DNA of 19,692 nt, taken from a virus (Duplodnaviria > Heunggongvirae > Uroviricota > Caudoviricetes). Below are positions 12,691-19,692 of the stretch, one piece after another. A program made the translations under genes and the position numbers. The stretch is from the IMG/VR virus record IMGVR_UViG_2778261637_000010, positions 1 to 19,692 of that record, one strand, 5' to 3'. Position 1 is the first letter of the stretch; each line of letters begins with the position of its first letter. A model generated the notes under the pieces. That model ran no database searches and was not told where the DNA came from. It saw nothing but the letters and a program-made list of their open reading frames with translations.

Positions 12691-14693
12691 TGAAAGTTAC
12701 TGCAAACGGTAAGACATTTACCTTTCCTGATGGTACGAGCACCGAAGATATTGGCACCGCCATTGATGAGTATTTTGCTGGTCAGTCAGCACCAACACAA
12801 CAAGGTGTGCAGCAATCGCCAGCAGACAACTCACTTGCATCAGGATATGCACAGCTTGCCACTCAGCAGAAGGAAGGACTAGATCGCTCTGCTGAGCAAG
12901 GGGCTGTTTTAGGTGCTGCAATGCGCGATGCCGTTACCGGTGAAAGCCGAATGACACCAGAAATGGAGAGACTGCAAAATGTTGGGTCTGCTCCAGAGCT
13001 TAATAGCTTAAGCACTGATGCGCTGCGTGCTGGATTGGGACAGCTATTTGGTTCCGACGCTTCACAGGAGAAAATACTGCAAAGTATTGGCGGGAAAATC
13101 CGGAAGGATGAGAAGGGAAATTCCATCGTCACCCTTCCTTCAGGGGAATATGCACTTAACAAGCCTGGTTTGTCACCGCAGGATATAACGTCATTCTTGG
13201 CAAATGCTCTTGCATTCACTCCAGCAGGTAGAGCTGCGTCTGTTGTAGGTGCAACACTAAAATCAGGCGCTACTGATTTAGCTTTACAGGGTGCCACTAA
13301 GATCGCTGGCGGTGAGAATGTTAATCCAGTTCAAACTGCAATTTCTGCTGGTCTTGGTGGGGTACTGAAGGGTGTAGAAAACACCGCAAGCGCAGTGTCT
13401 CGTTCTGCTATGGGTAAGATTGCTCCTGAAAAACAAGCTCAGATTGACTTTGCCAAGCAGAACAACTTGCCACTGATGACAACAGATCTTGTGGAACCGG
13501 GAACGAATATTGGTAAGCAAGCACGAGCTATGGCTGAGCGAATCCCAATAGCCGGAACAGGTGGGATAAGAAATGCACAGCAAAAGGCCAGGGAAGATTT
13601 AGTTAGAACATTTAGCGATAATGTTGGTGGAATATCTGACGCACAACTTTACCAATCAGCTACTCGTGGTCAGCAGCAATTTATTCAGGCTGCTGGCAAG
13701 CGGTACGACAGGATCATCAGTTTGATGGGGGATACTCCTGTTGACATCACTGGAACAGTGAAAGCAATTGATGAGCAGATTTCCAAGTTAACTCGCCCAG
13801 GAGTATCGCAAGACCGCTCAGCTGTTTCTGTCCTTCAACAGTTTAGAAATGACATCACCAGCGGTCCAAATAACCTGCAATTAGCTAGAGAAAACCGTAC
13901 AAACTTACGTAAGCGCTTTATGGCAGCACCTGACGAGGTCGATAGAGATACGCTGGAGAAAGCTGCGCAGTCTGTTTATAACGCATACACAACAGACATG
14001 AAAAAAGCGGTTGGCGCAAAACTAGGTGCGAAGGAAGCGCAAAACATGTCGCGTGTTGATCGTTCTTGGGCAAAGTTCAACGACATGATGAGCAATACAC
14101 GTGTCCAAAAAGCTATTCAGAGTGGTAAAACAACGCCAGAAGATGTCACTAAACTAGTATTCAGCCAAAGCCCAGCGGAAAGGGCGCAACTTTATCGATT
14201 GCTTGATGATAGTGGGCGTCAAAATGCTAGAGCAGCACTTGTTCAGCGTGCAATGGATAAGGCGACAAGCGATTCAGGAAAGCTTAGCGTTGAGAAGTTT
14301 ATTAATGAAATGAAAAGGAATCGGAAGCAGGCTGAGACGTTCTTCAGAGGAGAGCATGGGAAACAGCTTGATGGGATAATGAAATATCTTGATTCCACTA
14401 GACAGGCAGCTACTGCTGCCGCAAGCCCACTAACAGGGCAAATGGTAGCTGGTCCAGCAGCGCTGATAACAGCTCTTGCGTCTGTTACAAATCCAATGTT
14501 TGCAAAAGTTGCGGCAGTTGGAGCTGGTATCGGTATGGCTGGCAGGGGCTATGAGTCACGCGCGATGAGGAACGCATTACTAAAGTTAGCAAACACGCCA
14601 AAAGGAAGTACTGCTTATGATAGAGCGATCAGACGGGTATCTGAAACTCTTACACCTCTAATTCAGGCTTCAAGTGAGAAAGCCCAGCAGTAA
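12687..14693 (+). CDS. 16: Ejection (E) protein gp16-like, 668 aa
   Basis: ATGA overlap with gp20 stop; last gene of the rightward late block before the strand switch; synteny with P22 gene 16 but about 60 aa longer than I recall for P22 (609 aa). Confidence 0.75.
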   Translation: MMKVTANGKTFTFPDGTSTEDIGTAIDEYFAGQSAPTQQGVQQSPADNSLASGYAQLATQQKEGLDRSAEQGAVLGAAMRDAVTGESRMTPEMERLQNVGSAPELNSLSTDALRAGLGQLFGSDASQEKILQSIGGKIRKDEKGNSIVTLPSGEYALNKPGLSPQDITSFLANALAFTPAGRAASVVGATLKSGATDLALQGATKIAGGENVNPVQTAISAGLGGVLKGVENTASAVSRSAMGKIAPEKQAQIDFAKQNNLPLMTTDLVEPGTNIGKQARAMAERIPIAGTGGIRNAQQKAREDLVRTFSDNVGGISDAQLYQSATRGQQQFIQAAGKRYDRIISLMGDTPVDITGTVKAIDEQISKLTRPGVSQDRSAVSVLQQFRNDITSGPNNLQLARENRTNLRKRFMAAPDEVDRDTLEKAAQSVYNAYTTDMKKAVGAKLGAKEAQNMSRVDRSWAKFNDMMSNTRVQKAIQSGKTTPEDVTKLVFSQSPAERAQLYRLLDDSGRQNARAALVQRAMDKATSDSGKLSVEKFINEMKRNRKQAETFFRGEHGKQLDGIMKYLDSTRQAATAAASPLTGQMVAGPAALITALASVTNPMFAKVAAVGAGIGMAGRGYESRAMRNALLKLANTPKGSTAYDRAIRRVSETLTPLIQASSEKAQQ

Positions 14694-14701
14694 AAAGTTG
14701 G

Positions 14702-15022
14702 TTAGCGGTTGATGGTTGCTTTTTTCGGGTCATACCATCTCGGCCATTCTTTCAGGAATGGGAATGAGTCGGGAGCGTGGTTCTTTTTGTACGATTTAAG
14801 CAGCCTTAACCGCTCAATCGCACACTCATAAACCTCTTGTTGCCCTGTAGTCATCTCGGTCCATGAAAGGTGATCCATTGATAAGACAACGTTTTCAGCT
14901 TCTTTTATGAGGGCGTTTTTATTTCTCACCGCAGCAGCATGGCTGACAGAGCAATCCTGCCATATTCTTAAAAGCCAAATAGCTAAGCAGATGAAAAAAA
15001 TGGTAGAGAGCGATATGTACAT
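14702..15022 (-). CDS. Hypothetical signal-anchored small membrane protein, 106 aa (accessory cassette gene 3)
   Basis: ATG at 15022 with AAGGAG 6 nt upstream; N-terminal hydrophobic helix (ISLSTIFFICLAIWLLRIW) then soluble domain; stop 8 nt from the convergent gp16 stop; AT-rich. Confidence 0.55.
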   Translation of the reverse strand: MYISLSTIFFICLAIWLLRIWQDCSVSHAAAVRNKNALIKEAENVVLSMDHLSWTEMTTGQQEVYECAIERLRLLKSYKKNHAPDSFPFLKEWPRWYDPKKATINR

Positions 15023-15046
15023 GCCGATCTCCTTAGATTTATCAAT

Positions 15047-15081
15047 GCTGCATGATTTTCAACAGACATCAATCATGCAGC
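15047..15081. promoter_or_regulatory. 11-bp perfect inverted repeat GCTGCATGATT-N13-AATCATGCAGC upstream of the 106-aa ORF
   Basis: Read directly; lies in the 80-bp intergenic gap just upstream (on the minus strand) of the AAGGAG RBS of the 106-aa ORF. Confidence 0.4.
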
Positions 15082-15102
15082 TATAGGTAATAAATCAAGA
15101 AA

Positions 15103-15615
15103 CTATTGAGAACGTTTGTCTTTTTGAGACTCTAATATAGCCAATACCTTATAAAGAGATTGGTTTGTTGAGTCTAATTTTTGATCAGTGTTATCAATCC
15201 TTGACTGTAATACTGATTGGTTGTTTTGGATAGTAGCCATTATCTCTGCCTTACTGGTTTGGATGTTTCCTGTTAGCTCTTGTCGTGATGATTCAACTTT
15301 TTCATCTATAGTGCCTCGAATCGTCCATGTGGCGGCAACGATAGAACCAATGATAGCAACTGCAACCCCGTATAGCTCTAAACGTTTCACGGTATCACGA
15401 CCTTCTTCTTTGTGTTGCTCTTCTTGTAGGCTAAATATTTGTGGTTCCTTTGACGGATTTCTGCCAGTTGGTCTGTAATACTCTGAATATTTAGCGTTTT
15501 CTATTGAACTCCATAACGATTTGTCAAAGTCAAGGTTTTCATGTTGGCTTTGAGCATCTCCATAAATACTAGGTGATTTATTGTGAACATGTTGGTCAAA
15601 CATTATCTCCATCAC
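15103..15615 (-). CDS. Hypothetical single-pass membrane protein with C-terminal coiled-coil-like domain, about 167-170 aa (accessory cassette gene 2)
   Basis: Track ORF starts at GTG 15615; in-frame ATGs at 15612 and 15603 are alternative starts. One predicted TM helix (LELYGVAVAIIGSIVAATWTI, residues about 79-99) preceded by basic residues; C-terminal about 70 aa Q/N/S/T-rich with heptad-like spacing. 5' end overlaps the 3' end of the upstream ORF. Confidence 0.55.
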   Translation of the reverse strand: MMEIMFDQHVHNKSPSIYGDAQSQHENLDFDKSLWSSIENAKYSEYYRPTGRNPSKEPQIFSLQEEQHKEEGRDTVKRLELYGVAVAIIGSIVAATWTIRGTIDEKVESSRQELTGNIQTSKAEIMATIQNNQSVLQSRIDNTDQKLDSTNQSLYKVLAILESQKDKRSQ

Positions 15616-15943
15616 CCTTTACGAATTTTCCAGAAGAGATATTTTCACTAACTTTGTTTAAACTAAAAAAGTGGAAGAAACCGCAAGTGGTGCATTGCAT
15701 GGCTACCATGTTAAGACTATCGTTGCTATAAGTATCTTGATTAACAGGATTATTAGGCAAGCTTTTACCTGGTATGGATGGTCCTATAACTTCAACACCA
15801 TCATCTTTTTTAAGATGCTCCGGTGCTAAAAGAGTCCAGTTTGTATTGCTGCATATTGGGCATACATAAGTTTTTTTGAATGAAGTCAGGTAATTACTAA
15901 AAGACTCAAAAGTAACTTTTAAGTATTGCTCCTTACTGCTCAT
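15596..15943 (-). CDS. Hypothetical CxxC...CxxC (zinc-ribbon-like) protein, 115 aa (accessory cassette gene 1)
   Basis: ATG at 15943 overlaps the mnt stop (TAATG); motifs CPIC and CTTC about 55 residues apart; AT-rich coding sequence. Confidence 0.55.
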   Translation of the reverse strand: MSSKEQYLKVTFESFSNYLTSFKKTYVCPICSNTNWTLLAPEHLKKDDGVEVIGPSIPGKSLPNNPVNQDTYSNDSLNMVAMQCTTCGFFHFFSLNKVSENISSGKFVKGDGDNV

Positions 15944-16182
15944 TATTGGCCTCGAATCTTCTTAAGTACGCTAATTGCAATATCCATTGCTTCCTTCTCT
16001 GTTTTTGTGAGATCTTGAGATGTCGATGGTATGACCTTTTCTCTGTTAATCTTAATCCATAGCTGTATTGCAGCTATGATTTCAGCATTGATAGAGCGCC
16101 TGTTTGTTGCCGCAATGTGAGTAAGCTGCTGCTTGATTTCACTTGGCATTCTTACGTTAAATTGTGGATCGTTTCTAGCCAC
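15943..16182 (-). CDS. mnt: Mnt-like ribbon-helix-helix repressor, 79 aa, GTG start
   Basis: N-terminus MARNDPQFNVRMPSEIKQQL closely resembles P22 Mnt N-terminus (MARDDPHFNFRMP...) as recalled; GTG at 16182 with AGGAG 6 nt upstream; divergent from arc as in P22 immI. Confidence 0.75.
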   Translation of the reverse strand: MARNDPQFNVRMPSEIKQQLTHIAATNRRSINAEIIAAIQLWIKINREKVIPSTSQDLTKTEKEAMDIAISVLKKIRGQ

Positions 16183-16275
16183 GTCGCTCTCCTGTTATTT
16201 GTTGACATGCTAGAACGGTAGTAGTACGCTTTCAATAGTAGTACGGTGCTATCATTTAATGGAGTGGAGTGGAAT
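16183..16275. promoter_or_regulatory. Divergent mnt/arc-ant control region (Pant and Pmnt with operators)
   Basis: Rightward: TTGACA (16202-16207), 17-bp spacer, TACGCT. Leftward (minus strand): TTGAAA-N17-TAGCAT. Direct repeat TAGTAGTACG at 16219-16228 and 16236-16245; imperfect palindrome TAGTACGGTGCTA at 16237-16249. Confidence 0.55.
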
Positions 16276-16437: not shown

Positions 16438-16440
16438 AGT

Positions 16441-16510
16441 TGAAGCCCCAACTGCGGGAACAGTCAGGGCTTCGGTTGTCGGTAAATTCGTGGAGAAAAA
16501 CCAACATGAA
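16441..16510 (-). ncRNA. sar: Candidate sar-like antisense RNA covering the ant ribosome-binding site
   Basis: P22 makes an approximately 69-nt leftward antisense RNA (sar) from within the start of ant, ending in the arc-ant spacer. Here a hairpin (GAAGCCC 16442-16448 / GGGCTTC 16467-16473, inner ACTG/CAGT) sits about 65 nt left of the ant ATG, and the minus strand has TATACT just inside ant. No convincing -35 element or U-run found. Confidence 0.3.
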
Positions 16511-17541: not shown

Positions 17542-19692
17542 ATGACAGACATTACAGCCAATGTGATCGTATCGATGCCTTCGCAACTCTTCACTATGGC
17601 GCGTTCTTTTAAAGCGGTTGCCAATGGCAAAATTTATATCGGAAAAATTGACACTGACCCGGTAAATCCTGAAAACCAGATTCAGGTTTATGTGGAGAAC
17701 GAAGACGGCTCTCATGTTCCCGTTTCGCAACCAATCATCATTAACGCTGCTGGATATCCGGTATATAACGGGCAGATTGCCAAATTCGTAACTGTGCAAG
17801 GCCATTCTATGGCTGTATATGATGCATATGGCACTCAGCAGTTTTATTTTCCTAATGTGCTGAAGTATGACCCTGATCAACTACGGCAGCAATTAGAAGA
17901 CCCGGATGGAGCTAAAAAATATCCTGAATTGCAGATATCTCGGTGGAGGGACGATTGTGATGTAAGAGGGTGGGGGGCAAAAGGCGATGGTATAACAGAT
18001 GACACATCTGCATTGATCTTGGCTGCAGAATATGCACGAGAATCATCCAGAACATTACGAGCGGAAGGTAATTTTATTATTACGGAGACATTAAATCTTC
18101 GTAATGTCAGCCTCGAAATGACCAATGCTGTTTTTACCATATCCCACTCAGGAATAGGGGTATTGCTTGGCGGGAATGCATCAAACCCTAACAACCCAAG
18201 ACAAAACTTCGGAACGATTATCAGAAATTCTGGTATTTCATCTGAAACGACACCGGATATTCGTATTATTGGGGCAAAAGGGCAGCATATAAACATTGAG
18301 CGTTGCGACTACTTACAGTTATATGCAAATTATAATGCTTCGGTGGCATCGACGGATTATTCAATAGCATACTCAACCTTTAACCTGAAAAAGGTCGATA
18401 CAATTCATTTTCTTGGAGTTGAGAACGGATGGATAAATGAAAACTATTTTTATCTGAATCGTACGAATAATATCATTTTCGCTGATAATCCATATCATCA
18501 TAACCACAATAAGTTTTATGGTGGAACTATGGAGGGGGCAGGTAAAATTGATATTCAAAGAGGTGATAACAATTACTTCTACGGGTTTCGTTTTGAACGA
18601 TATCCATCATCCCCAACTAACCAACAGTTGATAATTAACTTTGGTGAATATACGTGGAATAACTCAATTGAGGCTTCATGGTTAAGTTCTCCTTACTATA
18701 CAAATGAACCATACAATCCATCACCTTACACTTATGTAGAGGTAACTGATAATGGCAAGGGGAATGCAGTATTTCATGTTCAGGAAAATATATCCGATGA
18801 AGTAACATTGTTTTCTTTAAATGCTAACACCCCATTTATATCCAGTGCCAACAATGGAGAAGTTGGTGTATTAGCATATCAAACAGATGTAGATGGTTTA
18901 TATAATATCCGTCACCTAGTTTCTTCTAAGTTTGCTTTTATGCGGAATTTTGGGTTGTTATGGGAATCTGGAGATGTACCAGTAAGAAATGGTGATATGT
19001 TTACATTCTCAGCAGATACGGCATCGTTTCGCATTTACCTGTATGCATTAGATGGAGATGGGAATGTCATAACTTCACAAACAGAAGCAATAACTTCTTC
19101 TATGCAATGGGATTCATCTAACCATAGATATGCTACTGTTGCTAACATTTCTTCCATTAAGATCATGATTAATAATGAAGGGGTTCCAGTTAGTGCAATT
19201 CGTTTAGCTGTGTATTCTGGTGGTAATGTAGCGAATACTGCATTTTCATGGCTATGCTTAACTGGTAGATATTACAAAAATAGCACATCCTTACCAAGGA
19301 AAAGCAAAGATAACTTCACCTTAAAACAAGGAAAAGCAATTACTTATTATAGTGATACTGATATTAGTATGGCTAACATTGGTTCAGGAATTACCTGTTA
19401 TAAAACCGATTTATCTGAAATCAAAATTAATCTTGTAAGGGGCAGGTATGTAGTGAAATCAATTTCAGGCAGTGAAATATATGTATACCAAGGAACAGCC
19501 ACTTATTACCCTCCATTCAGTGATGTCAAATTGGTATATACGGATGGGGTTGAAAATAAATTATTAGATGTGCAAAACATCTCTTCAGGAAAGATTACTC
19601 TTGCAGATACAGTACCATCAGCTATATCTGCAGGTGATTTTGTAGATGTTATTGTTACGAAGACGAAGTCTATTTTATCCAGTGCGCCGTAA
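17542..19692 (+). CDS. 9: Tailspike protein, 716 aa: P22 gp9-type N-terminal head-binding domain fused to a divergent right-handed beta-helix receptor-binding domain
   Basis: N-terminal about 112 aa ([46 protein letters not shown]...NVLKYDPDQ) matches the P22 tailspike head-binding domain as recalled; downstream sequence is unrelated to P22 and contains [17 protein letters not shown] typical of pectate-lyase-fold depolymerases; ATG at 17542 after GGAG; TAA at 19690-19692 is the window end. Confidence 0.85.

Follow-up and report, generated by a model that had tools for sequence, protein, structure and literature searches.

A two-gene cassette behind the mnt gene of a P22-like phage that recurs behind prophage repressor genes in enterobacteria: a candidate anti-phage pair

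Two small overlapping genes, orf115 and orf170, directly follow the gene for the maintenance repressor Mnt in a 19,692-nucleotide segment of a P22-like (Lederbergvirus) genome (IMG/VR record IMGVR_UViG_2778261637_000010; "the window" below means this whole stretch). Judged by sequence comparison, the pair is a conserved two-gene cassette of ~0.85 kb found across several enterobacterial genera, and its recurrence as a cassette behind repressor genes is a new result. An earlier interpretation made from the DNA letters alone (the sequence-only reading) had proposed a lysogen-expressed exclusion or defense module here; what it had observed is real, and its functional hypothesis, partly supported, was strengthened by the comparison with other loci. 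As the best explanation, one that we hold tentatively, we propose that the pair is a mobile prophage cassette, transcribed in the lysogen as cargo of repressor operons, with a membrane-acting anti-phage role. We favor it because accessory genes co-transcribed with a repressor are typically exclusion genes (lambda RexAB, 933W Stk and 434 Hex; PMC3564112) and because the interval between genes 16 and 9 of P22-like prophages houses the exclusion gene sieA (PMC10883804).

Linkage of the pair to repressor genes

The genes mnt, orf115 and orf170 are translationally coupled via head-to-tail overlaps. The TAA stop codon of mnt (15945-15943) and the ATG of orf115 have one A in common, within TAATG at 15941-15945, and a GAGG Shine-Dalgarno sequence lies 6 nt 5' of that ATG. 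The overlap of orf170 with the end of orf115 is 8-20 nt, depending on which candidate orf170 start is taken: GTG at 15615, ATG at 15612 (phage N7 annotation) or ATG at 15603 (PGAP annotation). Both overlaps had been pointed out in the sequence-only reading and were verified. Its further claim, that both genes are coupled to mnt, agrees with the layout of the whole unit: a Pmnt-like site lies 25-53 nt 5' of the GTG that starts mnt, just where Pmnt is annotated with respect to mnt in P22, and a scan of the window detected no terminator-like site from mnt to the end of orf170. The cargo is also AT-rich, as had been claimed, with a GC content of 0.369 for the cassette vs. 0.476 for the remainder of the window, and of 0.35-0.40 over 15000-16050 vs. 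0.44-0.51 in the structural genes.

The mnt product itself matches the Pfam Arc family (4.8e-13), and over 40 aa its N-terminus, MARNDPQFNVRMP, shares 48% identity with P22 Mnt; the alignment is restricted to these N-terminal 40 residues, the C-terminal half differing from that of P22 Mnt. The GenBank annotation of phage N7 puts the mnt start at an internal Met (68 aa). Use of the GTG start gives a 79-aa Mnt, restoring the MAR(N/D)DP N-terminus that it has in common with P22 Mnt.

Word-index protein searches gave almost only near-identical sequences, and the orf115 family emerged from an exhaustive phmmer search of 1.84 billion representative proteins. The family is small, with 16 matches at E<=1e-3, mostly of 104-133 aa and 30-35% identity. 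We gathered 26 related loci with distant orf115 homologs from genomes, metagenomes and viral contigs, and scored pairing with hidden Markov models (HMMs) from alignments A1 (13 orf115-family sequences, ~30% identical) and A2. In 22 of 25 loci and in the window, the orf115 homolog has an orf170 homolog immediately behind it or overlapping it; the Klebsiella spallanzanii locus, the single return of a contig scan with a narrow search pattern, has the same pair, for 23 of the 26 related loci in all. Relatives of the two open reading frames (ORFs) in other loci scored HMM E-values of 1e-26 to 1e-71, and sequences left out of HMM building scored 1e-26 to 1e-35; protein-level relatives at such scores show that both ORFs are more than chance. 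The hosts of the cassette include lambdoid prophages of Providencia and Klebsiella, in addition to the P22-like podovirus.

The three exceptions (L024-L026) have the most distant orf115-like genes, partnered by other small proteins with a transmembrane (TM) helix and a coiled coil, and sequence comparison hints at a wider superfamily of zinc-ribbon plus membrane-helix protein pairs. As a side observation, the partners at L024 (4278-4583) and L025 (4200-4559) have an inverted layout, coiled coil first and TM helix C-terminal (consensus LEARVARLETHVEYIRRDLD...); the orf115-like genes of these two loci occur in GC-rich lambdoid surroundings, also behind a CI-type repressor.

In 20 related loci the cassette lies directly behind a gene for a CI-type repressor (helix-turn-helix plus S24 peptidase) on the same strand, and this repressor gene diverges from cro, cII and the replication genes (of O/P or DnaB type). 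Among the 22 same-strand upstream proteins scanned, 21 have Peptidase_S24 and 18 have HTH_3, an integrase being the sole exception; at L026, one of the 21 S24 cases, one gene stands between repressor and cassette. Scans of three loci revealed no plus-strand terminator in the stretch from cI to the cassette, and a GC-rich stem with a U-run follows the cassette 3' in nearly all lambdoid loci. The earlier idea of lysogen expression thus gains comparative support, with the cassette behind a CI-type gene in 20 of the 26 loci, and from this arrangement we infer that the cassette is expressed in the lysogen. Its repeated independent placement in lysogeny-maintaining transcripts is the strongest available evidence that it would act there.

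One cassette, 100% identical at the protein level, lies behind three CI proteins only 24-29% identical to each other, and 615 E. coli genomes lacking the cassette have the cI gene of L015 at ~97% identity. We found the cassette with cI operons of at least ten CI types and, in the window, with mnt, the gene of a repressor of different fold. At every locus its GC content is lower than that of the flanks. Copies without an adjacent repressor (L003, L006/L007 and L023) are at prophage or island edges, with smpB, an integrase or the end of a structural-gene module as their neighbor. By these comparisons the cassette behaves as a mobile moron wired to lysogenic transcripts, one that appears to move independently of immunity type.

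This same linkage bears on a role in lysogeny other than defense, which we think unlikely: that the pair is an accessory that tunes prophage maintenance or induction, or host envelope physiology (lysogenic conversion), for instance with the zinc-ribbon protein as a regulator tethered to the membrane, or freed from it, under envelope stress. Membrane-sequestration regulatory pairs offer an analogy, which a small zinc-ribbon protein with a membrane anchor and a disordered cytoplasmic tail would resemble. The cassette is, moreover, linked specifically to repressor genes (CI or Mnt) and not to any lysogen-expressed promoter, and there is a precedent in 434 Hex, which is co-transcribed with cI and dampens induction by reducing RecA-mediated repressor cleavage (PMC3564112). 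However, the service of an identical cassette to such dissimilar CI proteins, and here to an Mnt of different fold, makes a specific repressor partner unlikely; the edge copies have no repressor next to them, and the patchy, swap-in/swap-out distribution is more typical of conflict genes.

The four-cysteine protein and the membrane protein

The orf115 product matches phrog_4293, of unknown function (4.7e-31). The CPIC and CTTC motifs that the sequence-only reading had picked out are conserved: C28, C31, C84 and C87 are all invariant in the 13 sequences of alignment A1, as is G88. A conserved N-terminal helix, with consensus ITFxEFAxYL, also characterizes the family. In the AlphaFold2 model (mean pLDDT 68.6), residues 10-40 and 78-105 are a confident core and residues 45-75 a poorly defined insert; the Cys pairs are at strand turns (strands 36-39, 79-84 and 90-94), with CTTC between the second and third of these strands. 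Maximum 19-residue hydropathy is 1.09, with no hydrophobic segment comparable to a signal peptide.

Pfam matches of orf115 were to zinc-ribbon or zinc-finger models only, all well under cut-offs. Foldseek searches with its model gave a best E of 0.33 against the PDB and of 0.0095 against a viral library ("putative zinc binding domain"), neither of them significant, and profile searches of the cassette proteins against PDB sequences and NCBIfam returned no significant named relative; that is, no curated family or solved structure matched orf115 significantly. The weak structural and profile matches are almost all to zinc ribbons (TFIIS, Rpa12, NrdR), and orf115 has the zinc-ribbon feature of two CxxC knuckles, conserved in the family, at beta-hairpin turns (with moderate model confidence). 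Membership in the zinc-ribbon fold class is plausible on the basis of the model, with no specific family assignable, and the protein may well bind zinc.

The orf170 product matches phrog_24865 (1.2e-115), a group of near-identical proteins of unknown function. Its residues 81-99 have a mean Kyte-Doolittle hydropathy of 1.92 over 19 residues and are its sole such segment, and a TM segment is at the equivalent place in 16 of 16 aligned relatives, so the single TM helix of the sequence-only reading stands. The term coiled coil that it had used for the tail needs qualifying: we rejected a classical heptad coiled coil (period 3.5), the C-terminal helix having instead a hydrophobic period of 3.6-3.67 (an 11-residue repeat) that exceeds the 95th percentile of shuffles in every member tested. 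In the AlphaFold2 model, built on three near-identical sequences, residues 1-61 are of low confidence (disordered) and residues 62-169 are one continuous helix, with pLDDT values of 89-98 in the C-terminal 70 residues. The C-terminal amphipathic helix is thus modeled at ~70 residues and ~10 nm and predicted to be periplasmic.

Orientation in the membrane is less firmly indicated. Throughout the orf170 family, K and R are commoner just before the TM helix than just after it, and the N-terminal region of 60-90 residues is without a signal peptide; for these two reasons we weakly favor an N-in/C-out topology, in line with the cytoplasmic N-terminal part and periplasmic tail that had been suggested from the letters alone. 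Across the 16 relatives the N-terminal tail varies, a weak S-[YF]-x(0-2)-P motif being its one recurrent element. Strong conservation, polar positions included, marks the end of the TM helix and the next ~45 residues in the same 16 sequences (consensus TWTISNxIxDKxNxSRQELxGNIQxSKxE...RIDRxEDKxDS, alignment A6). Since it is this membrane-proximal part of the predicted periplasmic helix, with its polar surface residues, that is most conserved, a conserved partner outside the cytoplasm is suggested.

Such a helix could belong to an entry blocker like SieA, Imm or Sie2009, in which the periplasmic helix of orf170, probably oligomeric, would stop incoming phages from forming or using a DNA conduit, and orf115 would aid insertion, stability or stoichiometry. 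We judge this improbable. To our knowledge, the characterized entry blockers (SieA, T4 Imm and Sp, HK97 gp15 and Sie2009) act as single proteins, yet in 23 of 26 loci orf170 has a conserved cytoplasmic Cys4 partner to which it is translationally coupled; because of this partner we favor a sensor plus an effector over a block to entry. The occurrence of the cassette in Providencia and Klebsiella lambdoid prophages also makes a target specific to P22-type ejection proteins unlikely. The high conservation of the predicted extracytoplasmic helix, polar surface and all, is what keeps the entry-block model alive, together with the predicted N-in/C-out bitopic form of orf170, its rigid length, and the location of the pair in the gene 16-tailspike interval, home of sieA in P22-like prophages (PMC10883804).

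The length and amphipathic nature of the helix also invite comparison with an addiction or toxin-antitoxin-like (TA-like) pair, in which orf170 would be a membrane-damaging toxin and orf115 its antidote, stabilizing the prophage rather than sensing phages. Two small overlapping genes on a mobile cassette would suit such a pair, and orf170 has a faint match to the hemolysin-annotated phrog_937 (E = 0.094). That match, however, is too weak to be meaningful, no described TA family has this gene order and these sizes, and Pfam, NCBIfam and PADLOC gave no TA-family match. We regard this alternative as very unlikely in its own right; it overlaps with the best explanation, TA-like and abortive-infection roles not being mutually exclusive.

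The cargo slot downstream of mnt and its surroundings

The pair is located between homologs of genes 16 and 9, as SieA genes are, but within the mnt unit. In P22, sieA adjoins gene 16 with its own promoter, and the mnt transcript carries orf59a and then terminates; on this comparison the pair fills, as cargo of the mnt unit, the slot equivalent to that of orf59a, and orf106, the gene between orf170 and gene 16, holds the sieA-equivalent position. The "sieA-equivalent slot" of the sequence-only reading is therefore right as to the interval between gene 16 and mnt, and has to be corrected as to the position within it.

The P22 59-aa protein encoded by orf59a and a phrog_23516 protein occupy this same slot, immediately downstream of mnt within its transcription unit; both are unrelated to the cassette in sequence and architecture, and neither has a known function. 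The latter is a soluble protein of 193 aa, without a Pfam match, encoded downstream of mnt in a P22-like prophage of E. coli (NZ_CP082824; L030, 4041-4622), with a start that overlaps the mnt stop by 4 nt. We had considered this gene as a type B SieA and rejected that assignment, the protein being soluble and unrelated; by sequence it is a third, unrelated cargo type of the slot. If the cassette is a defense system, the immI cargo slot downstream of mnt would be, besides the sieA locus, a defense hotspot of P22-like phages.

The orf106 product has an N-terminal TM anchor (residues 3-21) and matches phrog_10450, of unknown function. We treat the gene as separate cargo, and its product as another candidate for exclusion, because it is present without the pair in 19 other E. 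coli records. A long RNA hairpin with a minimum free energy of -25.9 kcal/mol (z = -2.81) and no U-tract separates the orf170 stop from the orf106 start, and its outer stem pairs with the orf106 Shine-Dalgarno sequence. Similarity to E. coli prophages that have only orf106 breaks off at 15040-15041 in the window, so that the greater part of the hairpin moves together with the pair. One possible role of the hairpin is to restrain translation of orf106 on read-through transcripts; another is to stabilize the upstream RNA at its 3' end. The Rfam mir-2013 match of the hairpin was set aside as chance (24.9 bits vs. a gathering score of 70). No intrinsic terminator was found after orf170 in the window, where this U-less hairpin stands alone, unlike the canonical terminators of the lambdoid copies.

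Over the region examined, the window is 99.6% identical to Escherichia phage N7. Of 5,426 complete E. coli genomes, 41 have prophages with the module region (14700-15945) at >=99% identity; by strain name and source (human, bovine and pig isolates) these genomes seem to belong to clinical and livestock lineages. Among 50,697 phage records, tblastn gave matches in phages N7 and HZ41 only. Beyond mnt, arc and ant are on the plus strand, followed by the tailspike gene, and the immI region is complete, since the sar antisense RNA lies at full length between arc and ant (Table 1). Within the tailspike gene (window ~18150-19692), the C-terminal part has ~35% GC vs. ~43-46% in the N-terminal head-binding part, which fits a swapped receptor-binding domain.

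Two further small genes were noticed at the related loci. In Providencia (L004, L008, L009 and L010, 5785-5958) a 44-codon candidate ORF without a family match was called between the CI gene and the cassette, and in several lambdoid loci a small convergent gene (59-72 aa, phrog_3975, of unknown function) lies just past the cassette terminator.

Table 1. Features of the cassette region, in window coordinates except for the last row
Feature	Position	Strand	Remarks
orf170	15103..15615	-	predicted bitopic inner-membrane protein; phrog_24865 match and model
orf115	15596..15943	-	four-cysteine zinc-ribbon-like protein, predicted cytoplasmic; phrog_4293 match
mnt homolog	15943..16182	-	79 aa, GTG start; first gene of the proposed operon; Arc/Mnt-family ribbon-helix-helix repressor
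Pmnt-like sigma-70 promoter	16207..16235	-	TTGAAA, 17-nt spacer, TAGCAT; consensus match only
First Cys knuckle CPIC, orf115 residues 28-31	15851..15862	-	invariant Cys; precedes strand 36-39 in the model
Second Cys knuckle CTTC, orf115 residues 84-87	15683..15694	-	invariant Cys, then invariant Gly; strand turn
orf170 TM segment, residues 81-99, LYGVAVAIIGSIVAATWTI	15319..15375	-	hydropathy
orf170 C-terminal helix, residues 100-170	15106..15318	-	alignment and model; predicted periplasmic
Long RNA hairpin, orf170 stop to orf106 start	15030..15101	-	folding energy
orf106	15022-14702	-	106 aa
Ejection-protein gene 16	end at 14693	+	
sar antisense RNA, between arc and ant	16438-16505	-	Rfam RF00262, 94 bits, full length
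phrog_3975 gene	L004 6922-7128; L011 4884-5063; L014 4907-5125	-	locus coordinates; recurrent neighbor

A proposed function and its comparison with known systems

In the explanation that we favor, the operon would read Pmnt-mnt-orf115-orf170 here and cI-ZnR-TM-terminator in lambdoid prophages (ZnR and TM being the orf115 and orf170 homologs), and the pair would act at the inner membrane to guard the lysogen against superinfection by phages. The orf115 product would be a small cytoplasmic protein of zinc-ribbon type; orf170 would be anchored in the inner membrane by its one helix, with the disordered tail in the cytoplasm and the rigid amphipathic helix in the periplasm. As a cytoplasmic sensor or regulator, orf115 would dock on the orf170 tail, and orf170 would be the effector. 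In the version we favor, a triggered orf170 would compromise the membrane and so bring about a Rex-like abortive infection; in a less favored version it would obstruct DNA passage. All of this anti-phage activity is proposed by analogy. A bolder form of the proposal is slightly more doubtful still: that the cassette represents a new anti-phage family, unlike any known system in sequence, in which a zinc-ribbon sensor controls a bitopic effector that acts on the envelope through its ~10-nm periplasmic helix of 11-residue repeats, and that the cassette spreads as a plug-in for the repressor operons of heteroimmune lambdoid and P22-like prophages across Enterobacterales.

Several points weigh against an anti-phage role. 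The cassette proteins have no similarity to known defense proteins in the PADLOC scan, and it is their position that suggests defense, by analogy with other cargo. Such slots can have other roles, as with 434 Hex, which also dampens induction (PMC3564112). The lambdoid loci have a gap of 65-340 nt between cI and the cassette, so that co-transcription there is plausible rather than evident from overlap, and the evidence for orf170 topology is weak. As far as we know, entry blockers are single proteins and Rex-type effectors are polytopic, and neither analogy fits fully. Finally, uncharacterized prophage cargo is common.

The question matters because prophage genes that share a transcript with the repressor belong to the small set of phage genes active in all lysogenic cells, and have repeatedly turned out to be exclusion systems (RexAB, Stk, Hex, SieA). 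The cassette is a clearly bounded two-gene candidate of simple architecture (four cysteines, one TM helix and one long helix), and it offers a natural comparison, since lambdoid prophages have it behind CI and a P22-like phage has it behind Mnt. It could affect the phage susceptibility of strains relevant to phage therapy and surveillance.

By sequence, the cassette is no member of any named family in PADLOC, Pfam, NCBIfam, the PDB or the annotated PHROGs, in agreement with the sequence-only reading, which had recognized none. A scan of all four proteins against PADLOC-DB v2.0.0 (2023 catalogue) gave 0 families at E<=1, Pfam and NCBIfam gave sub-threshold matches only for the cassette proteins, and their PHROG matches were all to groups of unknown function, none of them annotated. 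The searchable literature and the DefensePredictor supplements contain no mention of the RefSeq accessions of the three proteins (orf115, orf170 and orf106) or of the PHROG identifier.

That reading had also allowed for a diverged SieA homolog, which we reject, as TM count, motif and BLASTP all fail. The number of TM helices is three in type A SieA and four in types B and C, vs. one in orf170 (residues 81-99) and one, N-terminal, in orf106; SieA also has a cytoplasmic motif, FxRYPxEAxxFNK, and acts as a single protein (PMC10883804). The P22 SieA motif sequence, FGRYPGEANGFNK, is absent from all three window proteins, and BLASTP against P22 SieA gave E = 4.6 for orf170 and no alignment for orf106. 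SieA has its own promoter next to gene 16, whereas orf170 belongs to the predicted mnt transcript and has a Cys4 protein as its partner. Common to SieA and orf170 are the gene 16-tailspike interval, a length of ~165-170 aa, a predicted inner-membrane location and expected expression in the lysogen.

Rz-type i-spanins are type II inner-membrane proteins with a long helical periplasmic domain, and orf170 is like them in both predicted respects. It differs in its cytoplasmic tail of ~80 residues, in the lack of a partner lipoprotein gene, and in its expected transcription with a repressor gene rather than late. We rejected an i-spanin/o-spanin pair on the immI location, away from holin and endolysin genes, and on the nature of the partner, a cytoplasmic Cys4 protein without a signal-peptide-like segment. 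For that partner, the nearest likeness is to zinc-ribbon proteins (the C-terminal ribbons of TFIIS and Rpb9, the N-terminus of NrdR, and proteins of MqsA/YgiT type), which have two CxxC knuckles at beta-hairpin turns as orf115 does; unlike these, orf115 has its knuckles ~55 residues apart, with a poorly predicted insert, and a family-specific N-terminal helix.

The system most like the cassette in arrangement is lambda rexAB. The cassette shares no sequence similarity with RexAB in the PADLOC scan, and its proteins are built differently: the polytopic RexB has four TM helices and the 279-aa RexA is no zinc ribbon, whereas the cassette has a bitopic membrane partner and a soluble Cys4 partner of 115 aa. 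Like RexAB, however, it consists of two genes, one for a predicted cytoplasmic and one for a predicted inner-membrane protein, and is dispensable and patchy among related prophages; and in lambdoid loci it occupies the very slot of rexAB, directly behind the maintenance repressor gene, on the same strand, with a terminator at its end.

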